From IMG/VR virus record IMGVR_UViG_2703719286_000002, positions 3,723-67,722 of that record: a stretch of DNA of 64,000 bases; one strand, written 5' to 3'. Shown in pieces: positions 186 to 49,162 of the stretch (positions are counted from its first letter, which is position 1; every line of letters begins with the position of its first letter). Origin of the DNA: a virus. Its lineage: Duplodnaviria; Caudoviricetes. Made by a program: the position numbers and the translations under genes. The notes under the pieces are model-generated. The model had not been told where the DNA came from, searched no databases, and saw only the letters and a program-made list of their open reading frames with translations.

Positions 186-611
186 ATGCCCAGGCGAGCG
201 CCCCGCAAGAGCTACCATCGACCCGGCGCCGAGAAAATCGCCCGCCGGCGGGCGTGGGTCCGTCACTGCTACCGCCTCGGCATGAGCGTCAAGGAGATCC
301 ACCGGACGCTGCAAGCCCAGGAGCCGGCGCTGCTGGCCGGGTCCGCCGCCCCCTACGCCTTGATCTGGGAGGACCTGGCGCTGATGAAGCGCGAGCAGAC
401 CGCCGCCATGGCCGCGGAGCTGGCCGACGTCATGGGCTACCACCTGGGCCGCGCGGGCCGCAGGCCGAGCTCGAGGATGGCGGGACGGCTGCGCGACTAC
501 GCGGCCGCGGCGGTGAAGGGTCCGGGCTTGCGGCTGCGGCCGGTGCCCGACTTCGGCCTCGGCGGTGCCGGCCTCAGCCTCGAGGGACCGGGGATCGCCC
601 TCGACCGCTAG
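186..611 (+). CDS. HTH protein, possible small-terminase-like
   Basis: N-terminal HTH-like pattern (W..CYRLGMSVKEIHRTL...WEDL) loosely parallels the prophage TerS candidate (WDWHVEGLSASAIAERS...KRDL); TAAAAT at 174-179 lies 6 nt before the ATG (leaderless-type start). Confidence 0.5.
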   Translation: MPRRAPRKSYHRPGAEKIARRRAWVRHCYRLGMSVKEIHRTLQAQEPALLAGSAAPYALIWEDLALMKREQTAAMAAELADVMGYHLGRAGRRPSSRMAGRLRDYAAAAVKGPGLRLRPVPDFGLGGAGLSLEGPGIALDR

Positions 612-811
612 GGTCCGGTGTCGGCGAAACCGCCTGGCCCGCCACCCACGCTGACAGCGTTGCCCGGAAACAGGACCTACCCGGCGGGAGACACAGCCCC
701 CGGCGTTCCGGGGGCCTGGCGGCGATCCTGGGGCGCCGGGGTCGGTGACGGTGCGGTGCGTTGACGCCGGCGAAGCCGATGACGCTGTCGGGGCGCTGGC
801 GGTGAAACCTC

Positions 812-1066
812 CTACATGGGCAGGCGGCCAGCCTGACCTCGGGCCAGCCGGACCTTCCTCTGCTTTCGCCACCGACGGGCGGCGGCGTTCCGGGCCAGCC
901 CTTGAGGGCAGGCGTGGAGTAGGCCGTCTTCGCCGAGCGGTTCCCACCTGTCGCCGCGCCGGCGCCAGCCGCAGATCTCGGCGCCACAACCGCGGCATGG
1001 GCGGCACTTTCCCATCGACGTTTCCACGGGCTGGGCGGGGGATAGGCGGGCCTGGTCAGGCGTCAT
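812..1066 (-). CDS. Small hypothetical protein with CxxC/Cys motifs
   Basis: ORF in series with neighbours; CRPCRGCGAEIC and HAC motifs. Confidence 0.5.
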   Translation of the reverse strand: MTPDQARLSPAQPVETSMGKCRPCRGCGAEICGWRRRGDRWEPLGEDGLLHACPQGLARNAAARRWRKQRKVRLARGQAGRLPM

Positions 1067-1068
1067 CG

Positions 1069-1482
1069 CTACTTCTCGAAGCTACGGCGGCCATCTGGGC
1101 GGCGAGTGCAACGGGCTTTAACCCCGTTGCGGCCTTTTCGGCGCTGAAAAGGGACCGCCACGACCAGCCCGCCGGTGCCCCCTGCCCATGGTCGGCCGAC
1201 GCGGAGCCCGGACCGCGACAGGTGAAGCCAGCAGCCGGCGCATACCTCGAACGGGCCATGGGGCTCGCGGGACAAGGACTCGTGGCCGGGACCGCCGAGG
1301 ATGCCGCAAGCGGCGCACATCCCGTGGCCGACGAAGGGGTCGCCGCAGGTCTCACAGGTCAAGGCGTCGACCGCCCAGGTGGGCGTCGCCCGCCCCCGCC
1401 GGCGGCGCAGAGGGTCCTCGGCCACGGTGGGCGCCCCACGCCGGCGCGCTGCCGTCCCTTCGCGGGCGGCGGTGCGGCTCAC
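1069..1482 (-). CDS. Hypothetical Cys-rich (zinc-ribbon-like) protein
   Basis: CETC, CAAC and CAGC motifs; abuts neighbouring ORFs. Confidence 0.5.
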   Translation of the reverse strand: MSRTAAREGTAARRRGAPTVAEDPLRRRRGRATPTWAVDALTCETCGDPFVGHGMCAACGILGGPGHESLSREPHGPFEVCAGCWLHLSRSGLRVGRPWAGGTGGLVVAVPFQRRKGRNGVKARCTRRPDGRRSFEK

Positions 1483-1808
1483 CTGACCGTCTCCGCCACG
1501 ACCAGCAGCCGGCGGGTTGCCAGCGTCAGGCCGGCGCCACCGCCGCCATCAAAGGCGCTGCCGCCCAGGATCGCCGCTACCGCGCACGGCCGGCACAGGT
1601 GTCCCTCGATGGCCCTGGCGACCAGGCCGACCGGGAGCTCCGCCCGCCAGCTGATCCCCCCGCAACGGCGGCATCGCCAGACCGAGCCCGGCGGCGCGTT
1701 CCCCTTCACCCGCCCGTCCCAGCCTCGAGGGCCTGACCGCCGGACCCCGCTCGGGGCCTCCGCCTGGCCCGCCTGCCGCCTGTCCTTCTTGCGTTCACGC
1801 TTGCTCAT
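1479..1808 (-). CDS. Hypothetical protein with CxxC motifs
   Basis: CRRC and CRPC motifs; 4-nt overlap with downstream ORF; GGAGG-like RBS upstream. Confidence 0.5.
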   Translation of the reverse strand: MSKRERKKDRRQAGQAEAPSGVRRSGPRGWDGRVKGNAPPGSVWRCRRCGGISWRAELPVGLVARAIEGHLCRPCAVAAILGGSAFDGGGGAGLTLATRRLLVVAETVR

Positions 1809-1874
1809 GATCCCTCCTCACCTGGTCGCCGGCCGCCCGGTCCGACAGGTCCCGCGCCGGCCCCCCGTAGGCCC

Positions 1875-2025
1875 TGACGGCTAGGCCGTGACGGCTTCCT
1901 GACGGGTTGACGGGTTTGACGGGTTTTCCCACTTTCTCCCTAGGGGGGGGGATTCTATAAGGGGAGTTATACGAAAAAGGGGTCCAACCCGTCAGCTAGC
2001 TTCGCGCGACCCCCCTAACCCGTCA
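1875..2025. repeat. Iteron-like repeats flanking an AT-richer core (probable satellite ori)
   Basis: TGACGG direct repeats at 1875, 1889, 1900, 1908 and 1917 (last three TGACGGGT(T)); inverted copies AACCCGTCA at 1986-1994 and 2017-2025; at the 3' end of the primase gene. Confidence 0.7.
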
Positions 2026-4268
2026 GGATCAGGGGCCGCGAATCCGTCCGTGTGTAGGCCGATTCCCTTGTACCGCCACCCCAAGTCGGTGTGTCGCCCG
2101 TCGAAACGGGCCTTTAGACGCTTGCCGAACGTCGTCGCTGTCACCACTTCCTTGCCGCGCATACCCTCTTGCTCCGCCCAGGTCTCGTACTCCTTGTACA
2201 GCCGGCCGCTCAGGGCCGAACACTGGTCGGCGATAACGCACCGCTCGCCTATGAAGGCGCCCAACAGGTCGCTCTCCTCCTCGTATGCCCGCGTTGCCGC
2301 CAGCACAGACGCGGGCGGCTTCAGTCCGTCCACCTGCCAGCGGATGGCGCCCTGCACCGCCCAGGCCAGCACACCGGGCAGCTCCGCGCGTAGCCTATCG
2401 GCAAGCTGCTGCTCCCGGTCCTCCTCGAACCGTCGGGTGAAGGGCACCAGCCGGACGCGGCGCCAGAACGCGAAGGAATCGTCCGTAACACGCGGCTTGT
2501 GATTGCAGGCCAGCCAGAACTTCGCCACCGGGTTGAAGCTGAAATGCTCCGAGTAGAGGAACCGGGCCGTCACGGGGTCGCTGCCCGACAGCATCTTCAT
2601 CCGGCCCTCGTTCAGCCGCCGGCCCTCCACCGTCTCCGACGCCATCACCAGGCGCTTGCCCACCAGGGCGGCGACGTCGTTGCTGATGGCGCTCCGCGTC
2701 TCCAGCTCGAACATCGAGAACGGCGCGACGTGGCCGTATGATCCGAGCACGACCAGCAGGGTGTTCAAGAACGTCCCCTTGCCATTCGAGCCCGTCCCGT
2801 GGCACAGAATCCACACCTGCTCGTGGACGTGGCCGGTCAGGGAGTACCCGGCGGCCCGCTGGACGAACTCGATCAAGTCGACGTCCCCGACGAAGATCTC
2901 GTCCAGGAACCGCAGCCAGCGGGGGCACTCGGCGGCCGCGTCGAAGGGAACGTCAGTGTGCGCGGTGATCGCGTCGGCCTGGCGCCCCGCTCGGACCTTC
3001 CCTTCGCGCAGGTCTAGCACGCCGTTGCCGACGCCCAGGAGCCACGGGTCGAGGTCCCAGCCGCCGCCCTTGTCCGTGATGGGCGCCTCGGCTCGGGCCA
3101 GGGCCAGGGCGGCGTCTATCCGCTGCCGGCTCTCGCTGCCCAGCGCCCAGATCGCTTGCTTCCGGCGCTCCTCTGCGTCCTCGATATTGACGGCAGCGTG
3201 ATAGCGATGCCGCGCCGCCGCCTTCCCCAGCTGCGTCAGCTCGGCGCCGGCGTCCTCGCTCCACCACTGACCCGCCCACCGCAGCCAGCGGCCGCGTTGC
3301 CAGTCGTACCGCAGCCTGTCGCCGTAGAGGGCGGCCAGGAGCTCCCCGTTCCCGCTATCGGACCGAGGGTAGATGCCAGGCGTGGGCGCCGCCTGCTCGC
3401 CAGCAGGGACGGTCGGGGTGGCGACCGCGGCCGGGAAGCCCGTCTCGACCTGTCCCTGGGGCTCGGCCTGAGGCGGCTCCCACAAGGGCACCGCGGCCGC
3501 CAGCACCAACAGCTCCTTCACCGTCCCGCCCGCGTCGAGCCAGTCGGAGAGGTCGCCCTTGTCGGCCAGGCCGGGTAGGGCCAACACGCGGACCTCGGCG
3601 GCGATGCCCTGGAGACCACTGGCGACTTGGAGGGCGTGGTCACGGCCAGGCACATCGTTGTCGGGCAGGATGAAAACCCGCCGGCCGCGCAGCGCCTCGC
3701 CCCACTCGGACCTCCACTTGCCGGCGCCGCCGGGGTTGGTGGTCGCCACCAGGCCCAGGGCGCCCAGCCGGTCGACGTCCTTCTCGCCCTCGCAGACGAA
3801 GACCCACTTCTCGCGGTCGGCGGCCAGGATCTCGGGCAGGCGGTAGAGGACACGCCGGACGCCCTTGATCCCCCAGTCCGACGCGCCGGGGCGCCGCTGC
3901 GCGAACCGCTTGCCGGGTAGCCGGCAGACTTCGAACAGCGCCGCTCCGTCCTCGGCTCGGTAGAGGTAGGTAACCTCGACGTCTGACCGGCGGGCATCGC
4001 CGCCGGGCTTGGGCCAAAGGTCGCGTTCCCGTAGGGCCGTGAGCACCGCTTCCTGCGAGCAGCCGGCGTGACACCGGACGAGGACCTTCTCGCCGGCGAC
4101 GCCGACGCTGAGGCTAGCCCGGCGATCATCATGCCCTGGACAGTGAACGATCCCACTCGCCCCGCCGCGGCCCCCCCGGCAACTGCATCCGCTCGTCCCG
4201 CACCGCAGGGCCTCAACGATCCTGGCGGCCTCATTAACCGCGTCGATGCCTCCGCCCGCGTCCGTCAT
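1992..4268 (-). CDS. P4/D5-type primase-helicase (Zn-binding, TOPRIM, D5_N, SF3 ATPase)
   Basis: HCPGHDD...RCHAGC Zn site; TOPRIM VCEGEKD and PDND; Walker A GTGSNGKGT; NHKP and FWRRVRLVPF motifs. Confidence 0.93.
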   Translation of the reverse strand: MTDAGGGIDAVNEAARIVEALRCGTSGCSCRGGRGGASGIVHCPGHDDRRASLSVGVAGEKVLVRCHAGCSQEAVLTALRERDLWPKPGGDARRSDVEVTYLYRAEDGAALFEVCRLPGKRFAQRRPGASDWGIKGVRRVLYRLPEILAADREKWVFVCEGEKDVDRLGALGLVATTNPGGAGKWRSEWGEALRGRRVFILPDNDVPGRDHALQVASGLQGIAAEVRVLALPGLADKGDLSDWLDAGGTVKELLVLAAAVPLWEPPQAEPQGQVETGFPAAVATPTVPAGEQAAPTPGIYPRSDSGNGELLAALYGDRLRYDWQRGRWLRWAGQWWSEDAGAELTQLGKAAARHRYHAAVNIEDAEERRKQAIWALGSESRQRIDAALALARAEAPITDKGGGWDLDPWLLGVGNGVLDLREGKVRAGRQADAITAHTDVPFDAAAECPRWLRFLDEIFVGDVDLIEFVQRAAGYSLTGHVHEQVWILCHGTGSNGKGTFLNTLLVVLGSYGHVAPFSMFELETRSAISNDVAALVGKRLVMASETVEGRRLNEGRMKMLSGSDPVTARFLYSEHFSFNPVAKFWLACNHKPRVTDDSFAFWRRVRLVPFTRRFEEDREQQLADRLRAELPGVLAWAVQGAIRWQVDGLKPPASVLAATRAYEEESDLLGAFIGERCVIADQCSALSGRLYKEYETWAEQEGMRGKEVVTATTFGKRLKARFDGRHTDLGWRYKGIGLHTDGFAAPDPDGLGGSREAS

Positions 4269-4633
4269 GGTCTCCCCTCAATCTCGGCCTCCACGGCCCG
4301 GCGTAGGCGCCGCACCGCCTTGATGGCGCCCAGCAGCCCCAGGGCCGCGTCCTCGGCAGGTGGCGATAGCCGGCGCCGCCTGGCAAGAGTCACCAGCCAC
4401 GTCGACGCCACTTCCAGCGCGAACTCGTCGTCGACCAGCTCCCCGAGGACACTTGCGTGGGCCGGCCCCCTAGCCGTACAATGCCCGCGACGGTGAGCAG
4501 CCGTCACATCCCGTCCCTTTCCTTGGCCCCGGCCTCCCCCGGTCGGGGCCGCTCCATTCGATCCCATAGCCTCGCTCCCTCTCGCCCGTAGGCGGGCCGT
4601 TAGGCGGGAGTCGGCGCCCTCGAGGGCCGTCAT
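4265..4633 (-). CDS. Hypothetical protein (start uncertain)
   Basis: 4-nt overlaps with xis-like gene and primase. Confidence 0.4.
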   Translation of the reverse strand: MTALEGADSRLTARLRARGSEAMGSNGAAPTGGGRGQGKGRDVTAAHRRGHCTARGPAHASVLGELVDDEFALEVASTWLVTLARRRRLSPPAEDAALGLLGAIKAVRRLRRAVEAEIEGRP

Positions 4634-4950
4634 CGTATCCGGGGGACCGGCCGGGCAGCGGTCTCGTCGACCGTTGCGGCCCCCACCCCGGCCTCGACGA
4701 AGGCCGAGAGCGACGCCGCCAGGACGCGCCTCGCCCTACCGACCGTCATGGACTGGATCAGGCCCCGCGCCAGCAACGTGTAGGTCTCGCTCCTGCTCAC
4801 GCCCAACATGGCGGCCGCCTGCGGCACCGTCACCAACAGCGGCCCGCCGGCGGCGTCAGGGCGTGCCTGGGCCGCCAGGGCGGCCCGGACCTCCTGGGCG
4901 ACGACGTCGCGGACGCCGGCCAGCAGCGGGCACCCCGTACCCTCACACAC
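4630..4950 (-). CDS. Excisionase-family HTH DNA-binding protein
   Basis: LLVTVPQAAAMLGVSRSETYTLL...GRARRV is typical of HTH_17/xis proteins. Confidence 0.8.
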   Translation of the reverse strand: MCEGTGCPLLAGVRDVVAQEVRAALAAQARPDAAGGPLLVTVPQAAAMLGVSRSETYTLLARGLIQSMTVGRARRVLAASLSAFVEAGVGAATVDETAARPVPRIR

Positions 4951-5185
4951 CGCGCGCCTCCTCCCTGCGCTCCCGCTGCCGCTGCCGCCACCACCGGCGC
5001 TTGCGAAGATTGGCGCGCGCCCGTGCGACCGCGCCGGGCGAGTACAGCCGCGCGCCTTCCCCTGTGCGAAGAGGCACCAGCACGCCGTCCAAGCGTCTGA
5101 TCGTGTCCGCGCAGACGCCCAGCTCGCGGGCGAGGGCGCCCGCCGTCACAAAATCCGGCGAGCCCCTTCCGACATTTCCCTTCAT
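4943..5185 (-). CDS. MerR-like HTH regulator
   Basis: TAGALARELGVCADTIRR...GARLYS pattern; AAGGAGG RBS upstream. Confidence 0.75.
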   Translation of the reverse strand: MKGNVGRGSPDFVTAGALARELGVCADTIRRLDGVLVPLRTGEGARLYSPGAVARARANLRKRRWWRQRQRERREEARGV

Positions 5186-5202
5186 TTTGGCCTCCTTTTC
5201 GC

Positions 5203-5231
5203 TTGACTACGGGCGGCGAGGGGTCTACGAT
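5203..5231 (+). promoter_or_regulatory. Sigma70-type promoter for the rightward regulator/int operon
   Basis: TTGACT-17 nt-TACGAT. Confidence 0.6.
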
Positions 5232-5268
5232 TAGTATTAGGCTGACGACCGGGGATGGCAATAACCTA

Positions 5269-6084
5269 ATGCACCACGATAAGGGAAACAGCGACAGCAT
5301 AAGGCGCCGGGCCTGGGGGTCACGTCTGGGCGCCGAATACGAGCGCCGCTTCGCGTGGCTCTGGGCCGAAGGGTATCGGGACCCCGCGGCGATGAAGACG
5401 CACTGGCCCCTAGAGCACCGCCAGCCCGGCGAGCCGCCCTGCCCGGACCCGAATCGGGAGCCGTCGACCGGCACGTTCCAGAACCGGATACGCGCCTACC
5501 GCGAACGCGAGGGCGCCCCGTGGCAGTTTGCGGAGGCGGACCCCGTAGAGGTCAGCGCCGTCATGCCGATCCTGGGCGCCCTACTTGAGCACACCGAGGG
5601 CCGGCTCAAGACGTTCACCCACGCCGAGGCGGCGCTGCTGGGCCGCGTGCGCGCCGCCGCCCCGGACCTGAACCCGTGGCTCACCTACCGGATAGCCCAC
5701 TCCTACGTTCTGGGCGACGCGGACGATCAGGAGTCGCTGGAGGCCCTGCTAGGCTTCGGCGCCTGGCGGTCGCTCCGCGCCGTGGGGCGCTTCCTTCAAT
5801 GGACGGCCGACCGGCGGCCGGGCTGGCTCCTGGTGCCGCGGCACCTCGCGGATAAGCGCAGTCCGAAGCGGCCGGCGCACCGCCGCAAGGGCGTCCGGGT
5901 CCTCAGCGGCATCGGCCCCGTAGACCGCCGCGCCGACGGCGCGGTCGACCCCGACGGCAAGGTGCTGCGGCCTGTGCGGACCGGGCGCCGCACCGTCATC
6001 GACTACGCGGACCTGGTCGGCGTCACGGCCGGCGTCCGGCTCGCGCTCGAGCTCGCGGCCACGATGGAAGGGGGGACACCTTGA
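5269..6084 (+). CDS. Putative satellite repressor/regulator (start uncertain, ORF open from 5203)
   Basis: Divergent from the MerR/xis/primase operon, the position of Stl-like repressors; no family motif recognised with certainty. Confidence 0.5.
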   Translation: MHHDKGNSDSIRRRAWGSRLGAEYERRFAWLWAEGYRDPAAMKTHWPLEHRQPGEPPCPDPNREPSTGTFQNRIRAYREREGAPWQFAEADPVEVSAVMPILGALLEHTEGRLKTFTHAEAALLGRVRAAAPDLNPWLTYRIAHSYVLGDADDQESLEALLGFGAWRSLRAVGRFLQWTADRRPGWLLVPRHLADKRSPKRPAHRRKGVRVLSGIGPVDRRADGAVDPDGKVLRPVRTGRRTVIDYADLVGVTAGVRLALELAATMEGGTP

Positions 6085-6305
6085 CGCGCCACCGCCACAA
6101 CTGGGCGCCGGCCGCGCCGATCGCCCCGAAGTGGGACACGGGCAACGTGCTGGCCCAGCAGGTCGCGGCCAGCCCGAAGCTGACCCACGCTGCCTGCGCG
6201 TGCGGCGCCGTCCGGTCGATCCTTGCGACTAACCGCAGGCGCAATATCTACGTCACACGGGACGGGCCGCGCGGTCGGCGCCTGTGGCGAGGCAGGAGGA
6301 GGTAG
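6081..6305 (+). CDS. Small hypothetical protein
   Basis: 4-nt overlap with upstream ORF; CxCG motif. Confidence 0.45.
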   Translation: MTRHRHNWAPAAPIAPKWDTGNVLAQQVAASPKLTHAACACGAVRSILATNRRRNIYVTRDGPRGRRLWRGRRR

Positions 6306-6310
6306 GCCAG

Positions 6311-6676
6311 ATGGTCGAACAGGACTTCGATGCCGTCGCCCGCGAAGCATGGCAGGCAGGTCTCCAGAGCGACGCACAGGCGCTCATCGGGCCGGTGGCT
6401 GAGGGTTTATGGGACGGCCTTGGCGCCATGTATCGCTATGGCGACCCCGACACGAAAGCGCGGGTCGTCTTATTGATCAGTCGAACGAAGTCGGCACAGC
6501 CGCTCGCGGGAGACGAGGCCGAACTCGTGACGATCCTGGTGGGCCTGATGGGCAGCATAGTACAGGGGTTCGCCGGGGAGGGACGATCGCGCGGCTCCGA
6601 CGCATTGATCATGGCGGCGGTCGGCCTGGCGGCGACCGTGGGCTACGTCCTGGGTCAGCGGTCAGGTGAGGGATAG
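6311..6676 (+). CDS. Hypothetical protein with hydrophobic C-terminus
   Basis: GGAGGAGGT RBS before ATG 6311; hydrophobic ALIMAAVGLAATVGYVLG segment. Confidence 0.55.
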   Translation: MVEQDFDAVAREAWQAGLQSDAQALIGPVAEGLWDGLGAMYRYGDPDTKARVVLLISRTKSAQPLAGDEAELVTILVGLMGSIVQGFAGEGRSRGSDALIMAAVGLAATVGYVLGQRSGEG

Positions 6677-6710
6677 GCCGGCGGGAGCCGACCAGGAAGG
6701 GGAACGGGTC

Positions 6711-7850
6711 ATGAAGAACAGAAGGGCAAAAGGCGAAGGCGCGCTATATAAGAAGGCTGACGGGCGCTGGTACGCCACGCTCGACCTCGGCTGGTCAGGG
6801 GGCAAGCGCCGCCGGCGGGAGGTCAGCGGAAAGACGCGGCAGGAAGCGGCCGCCAAGCTGGCCACGCTTATCAGGGAACGCGAGGACGGCCTGGACGTGC
6901 AGGCCGGGCGCATCACGGTGGCCGATCTCTTGCAGCGATGGCTCAGCGCCCTCGACGTGCGCCCGACGACGGCGCACAGGTACGAGGAGATCTGCCGGCT
7001 CAACCTGACGCCGGCGGTGGGCCAGGTGCCGATCGGCAAGCTGACGCCCCAGCACGTCGAGGAGCTGATGGCGTCCATGGTCGCGGCCGGCGCGAGCCCC
7101 AGGTCGGCCATGCACGCCCGCAGCGGCCTACGGGCGGCGCTCCACGCCGGCGAGCGGTGGGGCCTGGTGGGCCGCAACGTCGCCAGCCTGGCGAAGCCCC
7201 TCCAGGTGCCTCAACACGAGGTCCGGCCGCTGTCGCCGGCGGACGCCCGCGCCGTCCTGGCGGCGGTCCGCGGCGACCGCCTGGCCCCGCTCATCACCGT
7301 TGCGCTGGCGGTCGGCTTGCGCCAGGGCGAGGCCCTGGGGCTCCGCTGGACCGACGTGGACCTTGACGGCGCCGCCCCGATGTTGACCGTCCGGCGCACC
7401 CTGACGCGGACCGATGGCGAGTGGTCATTCGGCGAACCGAAGACAACACGATCGCGCCGGACCATCCCGCTGCCCTCCCCGGTCGTGTCCGCGCTACGCC
7501 AGCACAGGACCCATCAGCTCGAGGAGCGCCTCCAGGCTGGGCCGCTGTGGGAAGCCGACCGCTGGGAGCACCTGGTCTTCACCACCGAGACCGGCGGGCC
7601 GCTGTCCACCTTCCACGTCAGCCGGCGGTTCCGAATGTTGATCGCCGAGGCCGGACTGCCGCGTATGCGCTATCACGACCTCCGCCACGGGGCGGCGTCG
7701 CTGATGGCCGCCCAGGGCGTCCCGGTCCGCGCGGCCATGGAGCTCCTGGGCCACTCGCAGATCAGCACCACCATGGACATTTACGCCCACGTCGCCCCGG
7801 AACTCGTCAAGGAAGCGACCGACCGCGTCGCCGCGGCGCTGTGGACCTAG
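6711..7850 (+). CDS. int: Tyrosine integrase with N-terminal arm-binding region
   Basis: GEGALYKKADGRW N-terminus; catalytic GLRQGE, K(T), HDLRH, LLGHS and IYAH. Confidence 0.96.
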   Translation: MKNRRAKGEGALYKKADGRWYATLDLGWSGGKRRRREVSGKTRQEAAAKLATLIREREDGLDVQAGRITVADLLQRWLSALDVRPTTAHRYEEICRLNLTPAVGQVPIGKLTPQHVEELMASMVAAGASPRSAMHARSGLRAALHAGERWGLVGRNVASLAKPLQVPQHEVRPLSPADARAVLAAVRGDRLAPLITVALAVGLRQGEALGLRWTDVDLDGAAPMLTVRRTLTRTDGEWSFGEPKTTRSRRTIPLPSPVVSALRQHRTHQLEERLQAGPLWEADRWEHLVFTTETGGPLSTFHVSRRFRMLIAEAGLPRMRYHDLRHGAASLMAAQGVPVRAAMELLGHSQISTTMDIYAHVAPELVKEATDRVAAALWT

Positions 7851-7898
7851 GCATGAACCGCTTGACAAACGCTAGCCGCCACGGCTACATAAGAAGGG

Positions 7899-7930
7899 CA
7901 GGCGGGACCGATAGGCGGGAGATAGGCGGG
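7899..7930 (+). repeat. Tandem (GAT)AGGCGGG repeats, candidate integrase arm-type sites
   Basis: CAGGCGGGA 7899, GATAGGCGGG 7910 and 7921, between the int stop and the tRNA. Confidence 0.45.
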
Positions 7931-7975
7931 TCTGGGGGCGCCTTTGGAGCCCATACGGACGGAAATCGTATCTAC

Positions 7976-8051
7976 GCCCCTGTAGCTCAGCGGACAGAGC
8001 AGCGGTTTCCTAAACCGCGGGTCGCCGGTTCGAGTCCGGCCAGGGGCTCCA
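7976..8051 (+). tRNA. tRNA-Arg (anticodon CCT)
   Basis: Acceptor stem GCCCCTG/CAGGGGC, D arm TAGCTCAG, anticodon arm GCGGT-TTCCTAA-ACCGC, T loop GGTTCGAGTCC, encoded CCA end; 76 nt. Confidence 0.97.
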
Positions 8052-28086: not shown

Positions 28087-29303
28087 GCCTCCACCTCCCT
28101 CCTCAGTGTCTTCGGGGTGATGGTCTCGGCCAGCTCGTCCATGAATGGCCTCCAACGGTTCTCCACTAGGGTGTCCCAGTCGTATTGCATCGCGAAGTCG
28201 CGGGCCCGCTGCCGCCGGGCCGGGTCCCTCGCGCTGTCGTGTGCCCACTCCAGCAGGGTGGCGAGGGCATCGACGTCGGGTATCGCCTGCCAGGAACCGA
28301 GGGGGCTCATGTGCCGCGCCGCGACCGGGATGCGCCAGTTGGCGTCCTCGACGAGCTCGGCGCTGGCCGCGAAGTCGGTGGCGATGACGGGCGTTCCGCA
28401 GGCCTGCGCCTCCACCAGCGGGATCCCGAAGCCCTCGCCCATCGTCGGCAGCGCGAACACGTCGAAGGCGTTGTAGATCCTGATCATGGTCTCGCTGTCG
28501 AAACCCCGCTGCACCTTGTACGGGTCGGGGAAGCGCAGCCTCTCGGCCACCCCGGTTCTCCGGCCCCAGTCGAGGAGGTCCGGGCCGCCGTGCTGGCGGG
28601 TGGCCAGCGTGTGGACGTAGAGCTGGGCGTCGTCGTGGCGGTCGGAGAAGCCCTTGAACGCCTCGAAGAGCCACTGGAAGCCCTTGCGGTCGGGCCAGCC
28701 CTTGTTGGCGCCGACGCAGCCCACCAGGAAGCAGTCGCGGGGGAAGCCCAGCATCTCCTTGCAGTCGCCCCGCTCCTCGGGCAGAGGCCGGAATAGCTTG
28801 GTCTCCACGCCGTGCGGGATGTAGACGTTCTCGACGGCGTGGCGGTTCAGCTCAATGTGCGCGGAGCGGCTGTAGGTCAGCGGCATGTACGCCTGCCGGC
28901 AGCGGTCGAGGACCGGCGGCGGGACCGGCTCGTGGTCGATGGGCATCCAGGGCAGCCAGTAGTAGGAGCTGGCCCCGAACTTCTGGACGTCGAGCACCCA
29001 GAGGTCCATGAGGGTGATGAGGCAGTCGGCCCCGAAGTCGGCGGCGTGGTCGGTGATGGCGTCGTTCCCCCACACGTCGCCGAGCACGGGGTAGCAGGTC
29101 ACCTCGGCCTCGCCGCTGAACTCGTTGCCGATGCGCTGGCGCGTCATGGCGCCCTGCACGCCGTAGTAGGCGAACACGGCGATGTCGTCGACGCTGTCCA
29201 GGCGCAGGAGCCGGGGGAGCAGGCTGTTGCTCTGGATCCCGTACCCGGTGAGGCACCAGGGCGCGTTGGCCATGTAGAGTATGCGAAGTCCTTTGTTCGT
29301 CAT
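28011..29303 (-). CDS. Glycosyltransferase, GT-B/GT4-like
   Basis: LRILYMANAPW..TGYG N-terminus; FDVFALPTMGEGFGIPLVEAQACGTPVIAT nucleotide-sugar motif. Confidence 0.92.
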   Translation of the reverse strand: MTNKGLRILYMANAPWCLTGYGIQSNSLLPRLLRLDSVDDIAVFAYYGVQGAMTRQRIGNEFSGEAEVTCYPVLGDVWGNDAITDHAADFGADCLITLMDLWVLDVQKFGASSYYWLPWMPIDHEPVPPPVLDRCRQAYMPLTYSRSAHIELNRHAVENVYIPHGVETKLFRPLPEERGDCKEMLGFPRDCFLVGCVGANKGWPDRKGFQWLFEAFKGFSDRHDDAQLYVHTLATRQHGGPDLLDWGRRTGVAERLRFPDPYKVQRGFDSETMIRIYNAFDVFALPTMGEGFGIPLVEAQACGTPVIATDFAASAELVEDANWRIPVAARHMSPLGSWQAIPDVDALATLLEWAHDSARDPARRQRARDFAMQYDWDTLVENRWRPFMDELAETITPKTLRREVEACPTTPTSSRPARAASRLWRLIAGT

Positions 29304-43777: not shown

Positions 43778-45281
43778 AGAAGTCTCTGTCCCTCTGTGCG
43801 CTATCACCCCTCGGCCTCAGTCCTGCCCGGATGCCCCCGCTGCGCGCCGCGCTGGGCCCCAGGGCCTTCAGGCGGCTCTCCCTGTGCGGCTGGTCGGGCA
43901 GGCCCGCCCCGCCGACCGTGAAGCCCTCGCCGATGAAGGGCTTGAGGTGGGCGATGGCCATGCTCGTCGTGTCCACCTGGTCGTCGAAGGCCGCGTTCGG
44001 GAAGGCCAGGTGCTCCTTCTCCCACCCCTCCCGCCAGTCGGCGTTGGCCGGCAGGAACACCCGCCGCGCCTCGAACAGCGGCATCGCCGTCCTGAAGCGC
44101 AGCACCTTGTCGGCCTGCGGCACCTTGACCGCCGTGATGGGCAGCCGCGTGTCCCGCCGCAGCTCCTGGACCGCCGACTGGCCCGAGGAGGCGTCCTCCA
44201 CGACGATGATGTCCGGCTTATGGAGCTTGTACTGACTGACCATCGCCTTCTTCAGCTCCGGGAACTCGACCCGCTCGTGCCACACGTCCAGCACGTAGAG
44301 CCCGCGCCGGCCCAGGCCCCAGGTGGCGCAGACCGAGTAGCTGCGCCGCTGCTGCTCCTTGGTCTTGCCGGCCTCGTCCTCCTTGGCGCCGGTGTCCCAG
44401 AGCTGCACGGTGTAGCCGATGTCGGGCGGGTCGTCGTAGTATTGCAGCCACTCCCGCTGCAGAATGCGGCCCGTGGGCGGCGCCGGCCGCTGGTCGTACA
44501 GGGCGGCCCAGAAGTAAGAGCCGAGAACCTCCTTGGTCGCCAGCAGCGTGCGCTCGTCGTAGCGCTCCGGCCATAGCGCCTCCCCCTCCGCCCGGCCCAG
44601 GGGGTCGTCGGGCCCGGCCAGCGCCGGCAGGACGAGCTCGACCCATTCCTCCTCGCTGTCGGCCAGGATGCGCCCGGCCAGGTCGTCCTCGTGCCACCGC
44701 GTCATAATGAGCACGACCACGCCCTCGGGCTCGAGGCGCGTGTAGGCCGTCGATCGCCACCAGTCCCACGCGGCCTCCCGGTAGGTGGCGCTCTCGGCTT
44801 CCTTCCAGTTCTTCACCGGGTCGTCGATGATCAGCAGGTTCGCGCCCCTGCCGGTGATGGGCCCGCCGACGCCGGCCGTCACCATGCCGCCCTGGTGCCC
44901 GGCCAGGTCCCACCTGTTGGCCGCCGAGGAGTCCTGGCTGACCTGGACGTCCCACAGCGCCGGGCCCCATTCCTCCAGCTCCGTCCGCGCCTTGCGGCCC
45001 CAGGACGCGGCGAAGTCGGCCTCGTAGGAGGCCAGGATCACCCTGTCCTCCGGGAAGGTCCCCAGCCACCAGGCCGGGAAGTAGTGGCTGCATAGCTCGC
45101 TCTTCCCGTGCCGCGGCGGCATCATCACCACCAGGCGCCGAAACTTGCGCCGCGCCAGGCCGACGAGGCCCCGGTTAAGGAGCCTCAGGTGCTCGGCGAG
45201 TTCCCAGCGACCGCCGCTTGCCACCATCGCCAGGCCCGCCGGGCTCCACCTTGCGACGTCCGAGTCGCTCAGTGAGGGCAA
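43767..45281 (-). CDS. terL: Terminase large subunit (start uncertain, ORF open to 45338)
   Basis: MPPRHGKS Walker A; GRGANLLIIDDP Walker B; WDTG and DDQVD nuclease motifs. Confidence 0.95.
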   Translation of the reverse strand: MPSLSDSDVARWSPAGLAMVASGGRWELAEHLRLLNRGLVGLARRKFRRLVVMMPPRHGKSELCSHYFPAWWLGTFPEDRVILASYEADFAASWGRKARTELEEWGPALWDVQVSQDSSAANRWDLAGHQGGMVTAGVGGPITGRGANLLIIDDPVKNWKEAESATYREAAWDWWRSTAYTRLEPEGVVVLIMTRWHEDDLAGRILADSEEEWVELVLPALAGPDDPLGRAEGEALWPERYDERTLLATKEVLGSYFWAALYDQRPAPPTGRILQREWLQYYDDPPDIGYTVQLWDTGAKEDEAGKTKEQQRRSYSVCATWGLGRRGLYVLDVWHERVEFPELKKAMVSQYKLHKPDIIVVEDASSGQSAVQELRRDTRLPITAVKVPQADKVLRFRTAMPLFEARRVFLPANADWREGWEKEHLAFPNAAFDDQVDTTSMAIAHLKPFIGEGFTVGGAGLPDQPHRESRLKALGPSAARSGGIRAGLRPRGDSAQRDRDFYGR

Positions 45282-45765
45282 GCGCGGCTTCGGTCGCCTC
45301 GTCGTCGCCGAGGATGTCCTGGGTGAGGCTACGGCCAATGGCCACCGCTTCCACTTCCACGCCGCCGGGACCGGCCTTGAGGCGGAGGGCGGCGATGGCG
45401 CCGCCCCTGGGGCGCAAGCCCTCGAGGTCCTCGATGGCGTCCTGATTCTTCGATACGACTATGAGTAGTGAGGCGCGGCCCGAGGCGTCGACGATCCCCG
45501 GTACGAGGTTGTCCAGCGCCAAGGTTTGCATACCGCGTCGGTGCGCGACCGCCATCACCTTCTTGGCGTCCACGTCCTTGCCCGCCGCCTCTCGCATCAG
45601 GCCCCGTGCCCTCTGCAGGTCGCGCTTGACCGTTGCTAGAGAGACGGTGGACCTCTCCGCTATCGCGGAGGCGCTGAGGCCTTCCACATGCCAGTCCCAG
45701 TGCTGCTTGACCCGCTCGACGGTCTCCGGCTCCTGATCCCATGGACGCTGTCGCGGTCGGCTCAT
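45175..45765 (-). CDS. Terminase small subunit candidate
   Basis: N-terminal HTH (GLSASAIAERSTVSLATVKRDL); immediately upstream of terL. Confidence 0.7.
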   Translation of the reverse strand: MSRPRQRPWDQEPETVERVKQHWDWHVEGLSASAIAERSTVSLATVKRDLQRARGLMREAAGKDVDAKKVMAVAHRRGMQTLALDNLVPGIVDASGRASLLIVVSKNQDAIEDLEGLRPRGGAIAALRLKAGPGGVEVEAVAIGRSLTQDILGDDEATEAALALTERLGRRKVEPGGPGDGGKRRSLGTRRAPEAP

Positions 45766-45808
45766 CTCTAACGGCTCACCATCTCGTATCTGTGGCCGGT
45801 TCAGCCTG

Positions 45809-46348
45809 TCAGATGCCCGCCCCGGCTGCGTCCGCGAGGCCGAACCCGCCCGCGAGGTGCTTCTGCAGCGCCGCCCGGAGCAGGCCGACGACCTCGCCGC
45901 CCTTCTCGTCCACGGCCCGCTGGGCCATGTGGACGCCCTTCGTGCCGGGGTGCTTCACGACGCGGGCGAAGGCCAGGGCGCCCTTGCCCTTCCGCGTCCC
46001 CTGCGGCCCACGGCCCAGACCGGCCGCCGACCGGCCGCCGATGGGCCAGGCCAGCACCTTCTTCGTCCGGGGCCGTATTTCGTGGGGCCGCGTGCCCTCC
46101 TCGACGAACCGGGCATACGCCTTGTCAGTCCCCACGATGACCGCCCAGCCGCCGTTGCGCGTCTGGGTCGCCCAGGAGGCCCGCAGGTGGCCGGTTCTCA
46201 CGGGCGTCCGCCGCTTGACCTCCCGCTCGATGCGCGTCCCGGCGCGCCGGAGGCTGCGCTTGGCCGCGGCCTGGAGGCCGTGCTTGCTGAGGCGGCGCAC
46301 CAAGTCATCGACGCCCTCGACGCGGATCGAGAATCCGGGCTCGGGCAC
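45809..46348 (-). CDS. HK97 gp10-like tail completion protein
   Basis: TPVRTGHLRASW, AYARFVEEGT, VKHPGTKG motifs. Confidence 0.85.
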   Translation of the reverse strand: MPEPGFSIRVEGVDDLVRRLSKHGLQAAAKRSLRRAGTRIEREVKRRTPVRTGHLRASWATQTRNGGWAVIVGTDKAYARFVEEGTRPHEIRPRTKKVLAWPIGGRSAAGLGRGPQGTRKGKGALAFARVVKHPGTKGVHMAQRAVDEKGGEVVGLLRAALQKHLAGGFGLADAAGAGI

Positions 46349-46470
46349 GGCGACTCCTTACGGTTATTCCGCTAGGGAGAGAGGCAACGAAGGGCCAGAA
46401 GAACGGCCGGGCTCCCACGAACCCGGCGGATCAGGAAGGCCGCCCCCGCTTAGGGAACGGCCCACGATAG

Positions 46471-46543
46471 AGTATACCACGGGATCGCCTCAGCGACTTT
46501 AGAGACTATACGGACTCTAAAGACTCCAGCGACTTTAAGAACT
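46471..46543 (-). promoter_or_regulatory. Probable late promoter with upstream repeated boxes
   Basis: Extended -10 TGG-TATACT (46479-46471), no consensus -35; CAGCGACTTTA direct repeat at 46491 and 46527; CTTTAGAG/CTCTAAAG inverted pair 46497-46522. Confidence 0.6.
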
Positions 46544-46563
46544 CTAGGCTCTTCATCCTTTGC

Positions 46564-46596
46564 GGGGGCCGGTCGCCCACTGCGATACCGGCCCCC
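46564..46596 (-). terminator. Strong hairpin closing the GGT-NN array
   Basis: GGGGGCCGGT.../...ACCGGCCCCC 10-bp inverted repeat. Confidence 0.65.
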
Positions 46597-46604
46597 GACG
46601 CAAG

Positions 46605-46750
46605 TCCTATCCTCACCCTACCGGACCACACCGCACCCGACCAGACCTTACCGAACCCGACCCAACCTGACCAGCCTTACCTCACCAGACCCTACCGGAC
46701 CAGACCATACCAAACCGCACCGCACCCCAGCGAACCAGCCTTACCTCACG
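46605..46750 (-). ncRNA. GGT-NN pentamer array, candidate VIPR-type guide RNAs
   Basis: Minus strand (GGT-NN)n with a repeated 16-nt handle GTGAGGTAAGGCTGGT (46749-46734, 46685-46670); 10 and 11 variable dinucleotides; non-coding, downstream of a RAMP-like operon. Confidence 0.75.
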
Positions 46751-47411
46751 GAAGGGCCACGAGCAGCTTCTCAAGGAGCCCGTGCAGGTGCCGGAGCCGC
46801 CCAGACAGGTGCTCATCATGTTGAACCAGCAGCTCGCCCTCGATGAAGTTGATCACCTGGTCGACGTAGTAGACCTGGGGGAAGCCGCCGGCCTGCTCAT
46901 TCGCCTCTTCCTGTTGCGGCGTCAGCTTCATAGCTGCCAGATGTGACACCGAACGCTTGATCACCACGGCTCCGTCCTGGCCCTCGGCGAAGCGGCGCTT
47001 CTCGATCTTCGCCACCATGATCTTCGTTATGCCGAGCGCCTCCGCAACGACGGCCCTCTCGATCTTGAAGTCCGCCGCCCGGAGGAGACATCGGTCCCGA
47101 TCCAGGGGCGTCAGCGGCGCCCCGTGGCCAGCGTTGAGCCGGATGGCGTCGAGATACATCTCCTCGTCCGACCCGTACTCTCGCCACTCCACAAGGATTT
47201 CCGCGTCACGGCCAGCGGCGACGGTCGTGGCCCGCACGCGGTGGAAGCCGTCCACTACCCGCTTCGACTTCCGGTCAACGATGATGGCTGGCAACCGACG
47301 GCCAAGGCCAAGGGCCTCGATGAGCCGCCGCGTGTTCAGGCTGTCCAGCTCGGTGCGGGGGTAGATGTTGTAGTCGAGTACCAGTTCGGCCAGCTTGACT
47401 TTAGGCATCAT
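46746..47411 (-). CDS. ParB/Srx N-terminal domain plus HTH protein
   Basis: LPAIIVD....VVDGFHRVRA ParB motif; RLNAGHG..LT; AVVAEALGIT HTH. Confidence 0.8.
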   Translation of the reverse strand: MMPKVKLAELVLDYNIYPRTELDSLNTRRLIEALGLGRRLPAIIVDRKSKRVVDGFHRVRATTVAAGRDAEILVEWREYGSDEEMYLDAIRLNAGHGAPLTPLDRDRCLLRAADFKIERAVVAEALGITKIMVAKIEKRRFAEGQDGAVVIKRSVSHLAAMKLTPQQEEANEQAGGFPQVYYVDQVINFIEGELLVQHDEHLSGRLRHLHGLLEKLLVALP

Positions 47412-48015
47412 GCACCTCTTCGATGCGCTCTACCTCGAACCGTCCGTATGGACCACGCTTCTGAGGGCGGAAGTCCAGCAGGCCCATCGTCTTGCCGCTC
47501 TCCTGGGCGCGCTCGACGATGTAGCCTTCTTTGCCCTCCCAAGTGTCGAGATCGTATTCCCACTGCACCTCGATCTCCCAGGGCGGGTCGATCCTGGGCC
47601 GGCGGCGCATGATGCGACCACGGCCGCGGATGACGACGGGCTGGGAATCGACAGCATACTCCGTGAGGCACTCGCCGTTGCGCCGCAGCGGATGGGCGTG
47701 GACCGTGGGGAAGACGGAACCCGCCATGATCGGACCCAGAGCGACACTGCGCTTCTTTCCCGGCACCTTAATCTCGTAGCCCTTGCAGGCATTCATGAGG
47801 GCTTGATAAGGAGCCATCGCTGGAACGTAGAGCCGCCCATCTGGGAGACGGTGAGCCCGCTGCTCGGCTTCCTCCTCTGGGGTCCCATAGTCCTTTGGCT
47901 TGCTGACCTCCTTCTCGCGCTCTTTCCCGCCCTCGTCCTCTTCCATGCCCTTCGTGCTGCTCATAAGCAGCGGCGTGAGCCCGTTGAACCGTAGACTGAG
48001 AATCCCTGTTTTCAA
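47401..48015 (-). CDS. Stand-alone Cas7/RAMP-like protein (Vipr-like)
   Basis: RAMP hallmarks: N-terminal strand LRFNGLTPLLM, GRLYVPAMAPYQAL (IPGSSLKG-equivalent), C-terminal Gly loop GLLDFRPQKRGPYGRFEV; 204 aa; no other cas genes. Confidence 0.7.
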   Translation of the reverse strand: MKTGILSLRFNGLTPLLMSSTKGMEEDEGGKEREKEVSKPKDYGTPEEEAEQRAHRLPDGRLYVPAMAPYQALMNACKGYEIKVPGKKRSVALGPIMAGSVFPTVHAHPLRRNGECLTEYAVDSQPVVIRGRGRIMRRRPRIDPPWEIEVQWEYDLDTWEGKEGYIVERAQESGKTMGLLDFRPQKRGPYGRFEVERIEEVHDA

Positions 48016-48091
48016 CCGCTTCGTTCCTTCCTCCCGGCGTCGCCGGGGCTAATCGCCACCCGCCCGTCGGCGCTGGCCCAGGTGGGGGCGG

Positions 48092-48715
48092 TCATGGCGC
48101 GGCCTCCATTAGCAATTGCGTGGGGAACCGTCCCGCCTCGTCTCCCCAGACCGCCCAGTTAGGGCGAGAGCGACGTCCGAACAGCTCTAGGTAAGGGCCG
48201 GGTGACATGGACTCGACCAGTTGGAAGAAGCCCTCAGGCTTTTCGCTGTGAGCGCCCTTCGGCCACTGATAGGCGGTCGGGCGATCGTGGCGAAGGCTGT
48301 CCAGTTTGCCCCGCACGCAGAACAGCACATGCTCTGTGTTGTTCCGAAAGGTGTGCCCCATACCGATCCCGCGCTTCTCCCACGTCAGGATCGTTCGGAC
48401 GGAGAAGCCCCAGGCAGCGGCTACTTGGTGACCCTCCACCATGAAAGCATTTGTCACCCAGAGATAGAGGTGGGCGTTCTCGGCAGCGAGGTCACGCACG
48501 GGCAGGCTCATGATTAATCCCAGCTTCATCAGCGGGTAGTGAGACTCCGCCCCACGTACGCTGTGGCGACCCCGTTGCAGCGGGTCTCGGTAGTCCCAGG
48601 GCGGATCAGCCACGATAGTCGTAAACGTGGCGATGGGCAGGCCGAACAGAAGCTCGAGCCCGCCCTTGAACACCCGCCCGTCGGCGGAGGTCCAGTAGGG
48701 GGCCGGCGCCGTCAC
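48092..48715 (-). CDS. MT-A70-family adenine methyltransferase
   Basis: IVADPPW; HLYLWVTN; TWEK; HSEKPE; YLELFGR. Confidence 0.9.
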   Translation of the reverse strand: MTAPAPYWTSADGRVFKGGLELLFGLPIATFTTIVADPPWDYRDPLQRGRHSVRGAESHYPLMKLGLIMSLPVRDLAAENAHLYLWVTNAFMVEGHQVAAAWGFSVRTILTWEKRGIGMGHTFRNNTEHVLFCVRGKLDSLRHDRPTAYQWPKGAHSEKPEGFFQLVESMSPGPYLELFGRRSRPNWAVWGDEAGRFPTQLLMEAAP

Positions 48716-48975
48716 GACGCCCTCTCCCGCACCGGGTCGTACAACGCCACCAGCCGGGCCAGGATCACCGCCCCGTCCGGCCGGCGCTCCAGCTCGGCCA
48801 GCAGCTTCCGCACCACGTAGTCCAGCTCCTCGAGGGTGTGGCTCGACGGCGACTTCTTCTGCCAGCCTCCGCCCGGCCACGCCCGCCAGCGGATCTCGAG
48901 CTCGATGCGCGTCGCCGTCGGGATGGGGCGCAGCGCCTCGTCGTAGAGCTCCTGCCAGCGGAGAGCGTCAGGCAT
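48712..48975 (-). CDS. Hypothetical protein
   Basis: Translationally coupled to neighbours. Confidence 0.5.
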   Translation of the reverse strand: MPDALRWQELYDEALRPIPTATRIELEIRWRAWPGGGWQKKSPSSHTLEELDYVVRKLLAELERRPDGAVILARLVALYDPVRERAS

Positions 48976-49162
48976 CGCGGGCCTCTCGAAGGATGTCTAC
49001 GGCGGGGGCGGCGGCACCGGCCGACACGCAGTCGCGGTAGGTGGCGAAGATGGAGTGGTCAATGAGGCGAAGGCCCGCATCGTTTAGCTGCTCGGCATAG
49101 TCGGCGCGGAGCCGCATCAGGTGGCGGAGGCGCTCGAGCTTGCCGGGGGTCGGGTCAGGCAT
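48968..49162 (-). CDS. Hypothetical protein
   Basis: Coupled small early ORF. Confidence 0.5.
   Translation of the reverse strand: MPDPTPGKLERLRHLMRLRADYAEQLNDAGLRLIDHSIFATYRDCVSAGAAAPAVDILREARDA

Follow-up and report, generated by a model that had tools for sequence, protein, structure and literature searches.

VIPR (for Viral Interference Programmable Repeat) systems were described in April 2026 (bioRxiv 10.64898/2026.04.26.720920) and are located mostly in phages and proviruses. According to this discovery paper, each system consists of a minimal RAMP protein (i.e. Vipr), usually with one accessory gene (vap), and of vrRNAs with 9–16 YNNGG repeats followed by a conserved tail. The NN bases alone pair with double-stranded DNA and one target base is skipped per repeat. 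Seven types and staggered-array variants were distinguished, the accessory genes were sorted into families vap1–6, and the vap types named in the text portion of the paper are winged-helix-like, helix-turn-helix (HTH)-like, HNH and helicase. A vrRNA gene is recognized by at least four tandem YNNGG units that flank vipr and share its strand, a guide typically having 9–16. The experimental exemplars are the type II system of Escherichia phage SUSP1 and a Pseudomonas fulva prophage. In the SUSP1 genome (KT454805), vipr (28474–29061, annotated as hypothetical) is flanked by GGY arrays and followed by a 146-amino-acid vap1. Binding of double-stranded DNA by the NNx code and transcriptional silencing have been demonstrated for SUSP1 Vipr. 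A structural paper assigned one protomer to each repeat and named the SUSP1 residues holding GGY (bioRxiv 10.64898/2026.04.26.720927), while the SUSP1 system was shown to fight a satellite and to require Vap1 (bioRxiv 10.64898/2026.10.15.759431). Phage-borne guides in published work target mobile elements, and a further preprint recovered 99 VIPR-like 5-nt clusters from intergenic DNA. Here, a two-gene locus with a downstream GGT repeat array is analysed in a 64,000-nt stretch (i.e. the window) of the IMG/VR record IMGVR_UViG_2703719286_000002, positions 3,723 to 67,722. With a probability of about 92%, this locus is the VIPR module of a provirus.

The window protein is a Vipr homologue

A first-pass annotation made from the nucleotide sequence had singled out a 204-amino-acid open reading frame (ORF) and an adjoining array as a candidate VIPR-type locus, and the literature to which it referred does exist (i.e. 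the three numbered preprints cited above). Two genes and an RNA region of 190 nt make up the whole locus, which spans about 1.45 kb and has the following components:

47401–48015, minus strand: vipr, encoding a 204-amino-acid stand-alone Cas7-like RAMP protein, with a TTG start at 48015 and a strong Shine-Dalgarno sequence, GGGAGGAAGGAA, ahead of the start
46746–47411, minus strand: vap-like accessory gene, encoding a 221-amino-acid ParB/Noc/KorB-like protein with a ParB/Srx N-domain, an HTH and C-terminal helices
46604–46749 region, minus strand: array with 24 GGT triplets (direct count), the GGT lying between 46617 and 46745

The three RAMP hallmarks claimed for the 204-amino-acid ORF (i.e. 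TPLLM, LYVP and G..LLDFRPQKRGPYGRF) were all present. No model in Pfam, NCBIfam or PADLOC matched the protein, and its match over the full length was to phrog_4652, a phage family of unknown function. Homology to SUSP1 Vipr was visible via the family profile only, pairwise searches alone falling short: single-sequence searches identified no solved structure (phmmer against the PDB) and no SUSP1 Vipr (tblastn against 50,697 phage records), whereas the family profile reached SUSP1 28474–29061 with an E-value of 1.9e-23 over 184 of 187 positions. The same profile matched exactly one sequence in the PDB, entry 36pp 'SUSP1 Vipr protein' (E 5e-21), and a profile comparison with SUSP1 Vipr using hhalign gave a probability of 99.2% (E 7.5e-20). 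The proposed assignment to a VIPR-type locus is supported by this homology, by the fold and by the linkage of homologues to arrays, none of the computationally testable grounds for refuting it having been found. A profile search of 1.84 billion representatives (E ≤ 0.001) recovered 6403 relatives of the protein.

An AlphaFold2 model built on an alignment of 100 homologues (predicted local distance difference test, pLDDT, 93.9; predicted template modelling score 0.88) exhibited an RRM core, a beta-hairpin thumb at residues 121–142 and a glycine-rich loop at residues 177–192 ahead of the last strand. The closest solved Cas7 structures were Csm3, Cmr4 and type VII Cas7, in agreement with the RAMP fold anticipated by the first-pass annotation. 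In the glycine-rich loop, D181-F182-R183 aligned to D177-W178-R179 of SUSP1 and, in the thumb, R139 aligned to SUSP1 R138. Residues D181, R183 and R139 were invariant or nearly so in the 100 homologues and position 182 was aromatic. The 204-amino-acid protein belongs to the Vipr family, whose members are minimal Cas7-like RAMPs. Its closest relative (P0001, assembly GCA_044345325.1) has a Vipr that is 74% identical and keeps the same pair of vipr and ParB-like genes; the two proteins paired with a support of 100/100 in a tree of 23 sequences. A search of IMG/VR by peptide words detected no close relatives.

The downstream tract is a two-unit GGY/NN array

The array lies directly downstream of the accessory gene and was divided into the following features:

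46734–46749, minus strand: first handle copy, GTGAGGTAAGGCTGGT (16 nt), overlapping the TGA stop codon of the accessory gene and with no repeat tract before it
46673–46736, minus strand: vrRNA unit 1, with 10 dinucleotides (NN: TC GG GC GC TT AT CT CC AG CT)
46670–46685, minus strand: second handle copy, the same 16-mer GTGAGGTAAGGCTGGT, at the end of unit 1 and containing the motif GA-GGT-AA-GGC
46604–46672, minus strand: vrRNA unit 2, with twelve perfect GGT and 11 dinucleotides (NN: CA TG CG TC AA CT CG GC GT CC AG)
46604–46617, minus strand: third, degenerate handle copy, GGTGAGGATAGGAC, at the end of unit 2
46563–46573 and 46587–46597, minus strand: GC-rich hairpin closing the array, with a stem of 10–11 bp, a loop of 13 nt and no U-tract

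The alternation of GGT triplets with variable dinucleotides noted in the first-pass annotation was confirmed by counting, with 20 GGT–GGT pairs at an exact spacing of 5 nt in a segment of 150 nt. Elsewhere in the window, segments of this length had at most three such pairs on either strand, and the 99.9th percentile per 150 nt on the array-free plus strand was one. Tandem Repeats Finder reported periods of 5, 10, 15 and 20 for this region. No second 5-nt array was detected in the whole 67.7-kb provirus record, the two four-unit runs present elsewhere in this record (1.15 expected from shuffles) being deemed consistent with chance. Perfect GGT was found for 22 of the 24 in-register triplets. 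The scaffold is degenerate at one triplet of unit 1 (GCT) and at the last two triplets, which are GGA and not GGY, and the NN strings of the two units differ at most positions.

The two tracts of 12–13 units are placed 0–130 nt downstream of the last gene of the operon on the same strand, and 12–13 repeats per unit fall inside the published range of 9–16. A non-coding run of about 145 nt had been described at this place; the run is present, its length holding only if the handles are counted. Similarly, the repeated 16-nt handle exists, but related loci, whose units end likewise, favour reading it as a conserved 3' end of the units and not as a divider of the array. The motif GA-GGY-AA-GGY is common to the unit ends of five related loci (L001, L022, L025, L027 and L095), where a tract ends with GA-GGY-AA-GGY(-AA-GG) followed by a short AT-rich tail, and the units of another locus (L094) close with GGTGAGGATAA, the same end motif as in the third handle here. 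Each window unit closes with a conserved GA-GGY-(A/T)A-GG with no tail beyond it in unit 1 and the hairpin after unit 2; no pseudoknot was found and Rfam gave no match. The units abut without a spacer, being joined by the 16-nt unit-end motif, and a one-base register shift in the handle (GGC-T-GGT) puts the two tracts out of phase.

RNA folding found the repeat tract to be unstructured (z-score of −0.14), with the terminal hairpin as the sole stable stem. A 10-bp hairpin had been proposed and corresponds to this stem. The consensus scan gave no terminator call for the hairpin, which is probably a 3' tail and/or a terminator. Consensus promoter and terminator scans of the locus gave nothing useful, and an Rfam scan of 45500–49000 identified no family, hammerhead included. 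In its architecture, the downstream tract is a canonical array of GGY/NN pentamers.

Vipr homologues are linked to same-strand arrays

The association of vipr genes with arrays was examined by scanning fetched loci for runs of at least six GGY at period 5. For genome loci of homologues with 27–35% identity, drawn from six or more phyla, 13 of 15 had GGY period-5 runs that directly adjoined the gene and shared its strand, as the first-pass annotation would have it for homologues of the protein. Same-strand runs were also found beside vipr in SUSP1 and in every viral or metagenomic locus examined, a low-GC metagenomic homologue (L001) having arrays on both sides of the gene, and no opposite-strand runs were observed in the scanned loci. 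Among related loci, GGY is conserved and the NN positions differ throughout. The two Vipr homologues without a GGY period-5 run came from metagenome-assembled genomes (MAGs) of an alphaproteobacterium (L014) and a saccharibacterium (L020) and may use a non-canonical repeat scaffold of the kind found in the literature. A handle-based scan of IMG/VR detected no sister arrays.

Two of the related loci have additional features. A Blastocatellia MAG (L013, 3744–7443) contains a very large VIPR locus with 12 GGY/NN tracts over 3.7 kb flanking vipr and a ParB-like gene. In the closest relative, a 46-kb contig, the vipr pair is located directly after the large terminase gene and the ParB-like protein is 67% identical to that of the window. 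Behind the gene pair come 570 nt that were called as a minus-strand ORF but probably represent the array of this relative, and then a TROVE/Ro60-vWA gene, whose product is RNA-binding and unusual in phage.

A ParB-like accessory gene is a recurrent partner of vipr

The ATG start of the accessory gene overlaps the vipr stop codon by 11 nt, forming a two-gene operon. The accessory protein matched phrog_1033 (ParB-like; E 7.8e-8) and no model in Pfam, NCBIfam or PADLOC, and some of its homologues carry PF02195. An AlphaFold2 model (pLDDT 95.5) was matched by Foldseek to ParB-N, ParB-CDP/CTP, Noc and KorB structures (i.e. 5k5d, 6sdk, 7ng0, 7bnr and 8qa9) with E-values of 7e-6 to 1e-4 and a probability of 1.00. 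As in the ParB/Noc/KorB proteins, which are CTP-dependent clamps on DNA, an N-terminal ParB/Srx fold is followed by an HTH domain. Relative to the CTP-binding box II of ParB (GERRxRA), the accessory protein reads G55-F-H-R-V-R-A61, keeping the Gly, the second Arg and the Arg-Ala, whereas the Glu is changed to Phe and the first Arg to His. Replacement of these two residues makes CTP hydrolysis by the accessory protein doubtful. A D-G-x-H-R signature was invariant at D54, G55, H57 and R58 in 58 accessory homologues. Further differences from the ParB/Noc/KorB family are a weak sequence match (E 0.011), the lack of a ParA partner and a strict linkage to vipr genes and not to partition loci.

Homologues of the accessory gene were found beside vipr in nine other distinct loci from at least four phyla and from viral contigs, with arrays wherever DNA was read. 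For a search seeded with the accessory protein, every locus with readable DNA had vipr just upstream and GGY arrays around it (i.e. L022/L023, L024=L029, L025, L027 and L031); L025 starts at a contig edge such that the arrays alone are visible. The pairing also occurs in Acidobacteriota (L013), Verrucomicrobiota (L006), Planctomycetota (L009) and L095, and by synteny only in the P0006 and P0001 loci. The ParB-like gene is a recurrent vipr partner across phyla, and is part of the module and not an insertion. In the tree of 23 sequences, loci without a ParB-like gene formed a clade (support of 91/81), with the ParB-linked Viprs outside and not resolved as one clade.

Searches for targets of the two guides

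Potential targets were sought with the NNx rule (i.e. a 1-nt skip) and the published cut-off of an 80% match. In the provirus itself, the best matches were 16/24 and 17/26, equal to those of shuffled guides. The window also contains, at 186–8051, a satellite-like element encoding an integrase and a D5-type primase-helicase, without virion genes, that adjoins the prophage at a tRNA-Arg (7976–8051). Neither guide matched this element under the NNx rule and, for the provirus with this left-end element included, no match rose above shuffled guides at any skip length, save for a self-match of the array at skip 3. The provirus without a self-target agrees with the published lack of self-targets at other loci. 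Four exact scans of IMG/VR with 18 specified bases yielded 0, 1, 0 and 1 matches as compared to 1 for a scrambled control. Both IMG/VR matches (L026 and L032) were rejected as targets as they failed on extension and had the skipped base at codon position 1 or 2; L032 is additionally a low-GC phage.

When metagenomes were scanned with nine of the 11 unit 2 dinucleotides (i.e. 3–11), 60 matches were obtained. Approximately 48 of these were antisense to the conserved LGTARSFER codons of aspartate carbamoyltransferase (pyrB) in soil bacteria of about 70% GC (contigs within L033–L092, e.g. L038 9185–9210), and all of the sequence variation among the pyrB matches was at the skipped positions, which are the wobble positions. 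The guides might thus act on the host, with unit 2 silencing host pyrB; such a role would fit the concentration of matches in one gene family and a match of 18/22 (82%), above the published cut-off. The 18 matches, however, were demanded by the search itself, and the guide positions flanking them, four to either side, matched 0/4 and 0/4 (i.e. 0/8). Around 12 unrelated single matches arose in the same scan, as expected by chance at this database size, and a chance match in wobble phase would be multiplied by all homologues. For unit 1, these same contigs (385 kb) contained nothing that exceeded the matches of shuffled guides. For these reasons, the pyrB cluster was rejected as evidence of a target and is held to be probably a product of chance. 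A host target is also at odds with the mobile elements targeted by published phage-borne guides. Silencing of host pyrB is accordingly considered improbable. The target searches were low-powered because only exact matches could be found.

The module resides in a GC-rich temperate provirus

The source record belongs to the provirus class of IMG/VR, has a length of 67,722 nt, an estimated completeness of 78% and a GC content of 67%. The carrier of the module is a temperate siphovirus-like provirus of a GC-rich uncultured bacterium. Nearly all window genes are on the minus strand, and the module is located between the phage DNA-methylase/early genes and the packaging genes. Tyrosine integrases, the tRNA-Arg, the D5-type primase element, RecT-like, HerA-like and DnaC-like genes and C5 and MT-A70 methylases come before the module, which is followed by gp10-like, large terminase, portal, protease, major head protein, tape measure and endolysin genes. 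The 64 kb contained no CRISPR array or CRISPR-like repeats, no second RAMP gene and no Cas5, Cas10, Cas11, Cas6 or other cas-like gene, as the first-pass annotation had stated for cas genes and CRISPR arrays, and the provirus gave a single Vipr match. A Cas7-like fold is present but the partners and CRISPR array of a class 1 CRISPR-Cas effector (type III or VII) are absent from the 64 kb, such that the locus does not qualify as one.

Several observations were made on the packaging side of the array. Immediately downstream of the hairpin and upstream of the late/packaging genes, an AT-rich patch (46491–46541) has a TATACT-like box and an 18-nt direct repeat with the core AAAGTCGCTG that occurs about 2.7 times, two of the copies being close. 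This patch may be an operator or a late-promoter region, or the ParB-like protein may bind there. An HK97 gp10-like tail-completion gene (45809–46348) lies upstream of the terminase genes and apart from the other tail genes, and is followed, in the small-terminase position, by a gene for a 196-amino-acid HTH/sigma region 4-like protein (45175–45765).

Proposed mechanism and alternative explanations

The defining VIPR features that can be tested are present at this locus. By analogy with SUSP1, vipr, the ParB-like gene and the array would be co-transcribed and the transcript would give rise to two guide RNAs of about 65–110 nt. One Vipr protomer would occupy each 5-nt repeat, with Asp181-Phe182-Arg183 and Arg139 holding GG and the next protomer holding the pyrimidine. 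The resulting helical filament would present 10–11 variable dinucleotides for pairing with double-stranded DNA in an NN-x-NN-x reading, one base being skipped per repeat, and binding would lead to transcriptional repression of a competing mobile element. The 5-nt register is interrupted at the 4-nt junction (GGC-T-GGT), which would therefore mark the boundary of two filaments or guides. The ParB-like protein may act as a DNA-binding accessory, making silencing stronger or extending it. More specifically, it could work like KorB/ParB, being recruited where the Vipr–vrRNA filament opens the DNA and then clamping or spreading along the duplex, an idea that we consider speculative and rather unlikely. 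If correct, a guide footprint of about 35 bp would be converted into long-range silencing of a rival element, adding a second, nucleotide-switch layer of RNA-guided repression that is not described for SUSP1.

Several points weigh against assignment of this locus to VIPR. SUSP1 His17, which contacts G1, is replaced by Ser19; this column is variable across the family, so that His17 is a SUSP1-clade residue and Ser19 is no bar to membership. The array is minimal, with two units, and has neither the AT-rich spacers or tails that relatives show between units nor the SUSP1 clade's pseudoknot tail, and its first handle copy has no preceding repeat tract. The accessory protein is not homologous to Vap1, the only tested accessory (hhalign probability of 0.3%). 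No credible natural target was found in the provirus itself, in the exact scans of IMG/VR or in metagenomes.

Some of these points would also be explained if the locus were a decaying or idle VIPR remnant, with guides that lack a matching target or are unprocessed and no current function in the prophage. Decay would account for an array of only two units, as compared to 3–12 tracts in most relatives, for the GCT triplet and the two final GGA triplets, for the orphan handle at the stop codon of the accessory gene and for the failure of the target searches. Both ORFs are, however, intact and have the high third-position GC content typical of coding sequence in this genome, the key RNA-contact residues are retained and the GGT register is perfect at all but two triplets. 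The vipr and ParB-like pair is moreover kept in a relative at 74% identity, and the exact-match searches had little power to reveal a target. A remnant is judged to be very unlikely. Least probable of all, and barely credible, is that the RAMP protein binds repeat RNA for another purpose (e.g. to target RNA, or to form an RNA scaffold that works together with the ParB-like protein in genome segregation or packaging), for although the closest solved Cas7 proteins belong to RNA-targeting complexes, the accessory is ParB-like and the module adjoins packaging genes, the protein is directly homologous to SUSP1 Vipr with its demonstrated NNx binding of double-stranded DNA and silencing, the GGY/NN architecture is the same and neither a ParA partner nor a set of centromere-like repeats was identified.

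Comparison with known systems

A VIPR module thus remains the preferred reading of this locus, which provides a compact example from a GC-rich soil-type provirus and confirms what has been published without adding to it. Its modest interest lies in the accessory being ParB-like and in the two units of the array following each other without a spacer. An accessory of ParB/KorB type that is linked to vipr across several phyla is a tractable candidate for how accessories boost silencing, while abutting guides with a one-base register shift offer a minimal substrate for the guide-boundary question. The satellite-like element in the same window is the kind of rival that VIPR fights, yet it is unmatched by the guides.

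The window protein is about 10–13% identical to the Cas7 proteins of class 1 CRISPR effectors (i.e. Csm3, Cmr4 and type VII Cas7). The locus differs from these effectors in having neither Cas5, Cas10, Cas11 and Cas6 partners nor CRISPR repeats, and in an expected stoichiometry of one protomer per 5 nt of repeat-only RNA as compared to one per 6 nt of spacer. The abutting units, which are shifted by one base (GGC-T-GGT) and of which the second begins where the first ends, resemble the 'staggered' vrRNA arrays of the discovery paper, a likeness drawn from the legend of fig. S18 alone (bioRxiv 10.64898/2026.04.26.720920).

With respect to SUSP1, the window Vipr belongs to a different clade and is about 18% identical over the columns aligned by hhalign, and the accessory is ParB-like in place of a Vap1 homologue. 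Two units are present as compared to four, with a direct 16-nt join and a 1-nt register shift, and both a spacer and a pseudoknot tail are missing. Upstream of vipr no vrRNA is present, GGT makes up almost the whole scaffold and the host is GC-rich (67% GC). The protein shares with SUSP1 Vipr the organization of a stand-alone Cas7-like RAMP with a D-aromatic-R glycine-rich loop and a thumb Arg. In common with both the SUSP1 and P. fulva systems, the locus has same-strand GGY/NN tracts of 9–16 repeats downstream of a vipr–accessory pair and a viral (here proviral) carrier, with no cas genes, CRISPR array or self-target. As VIPR has already been published, this locus is a valid but ordinary further example of the system.

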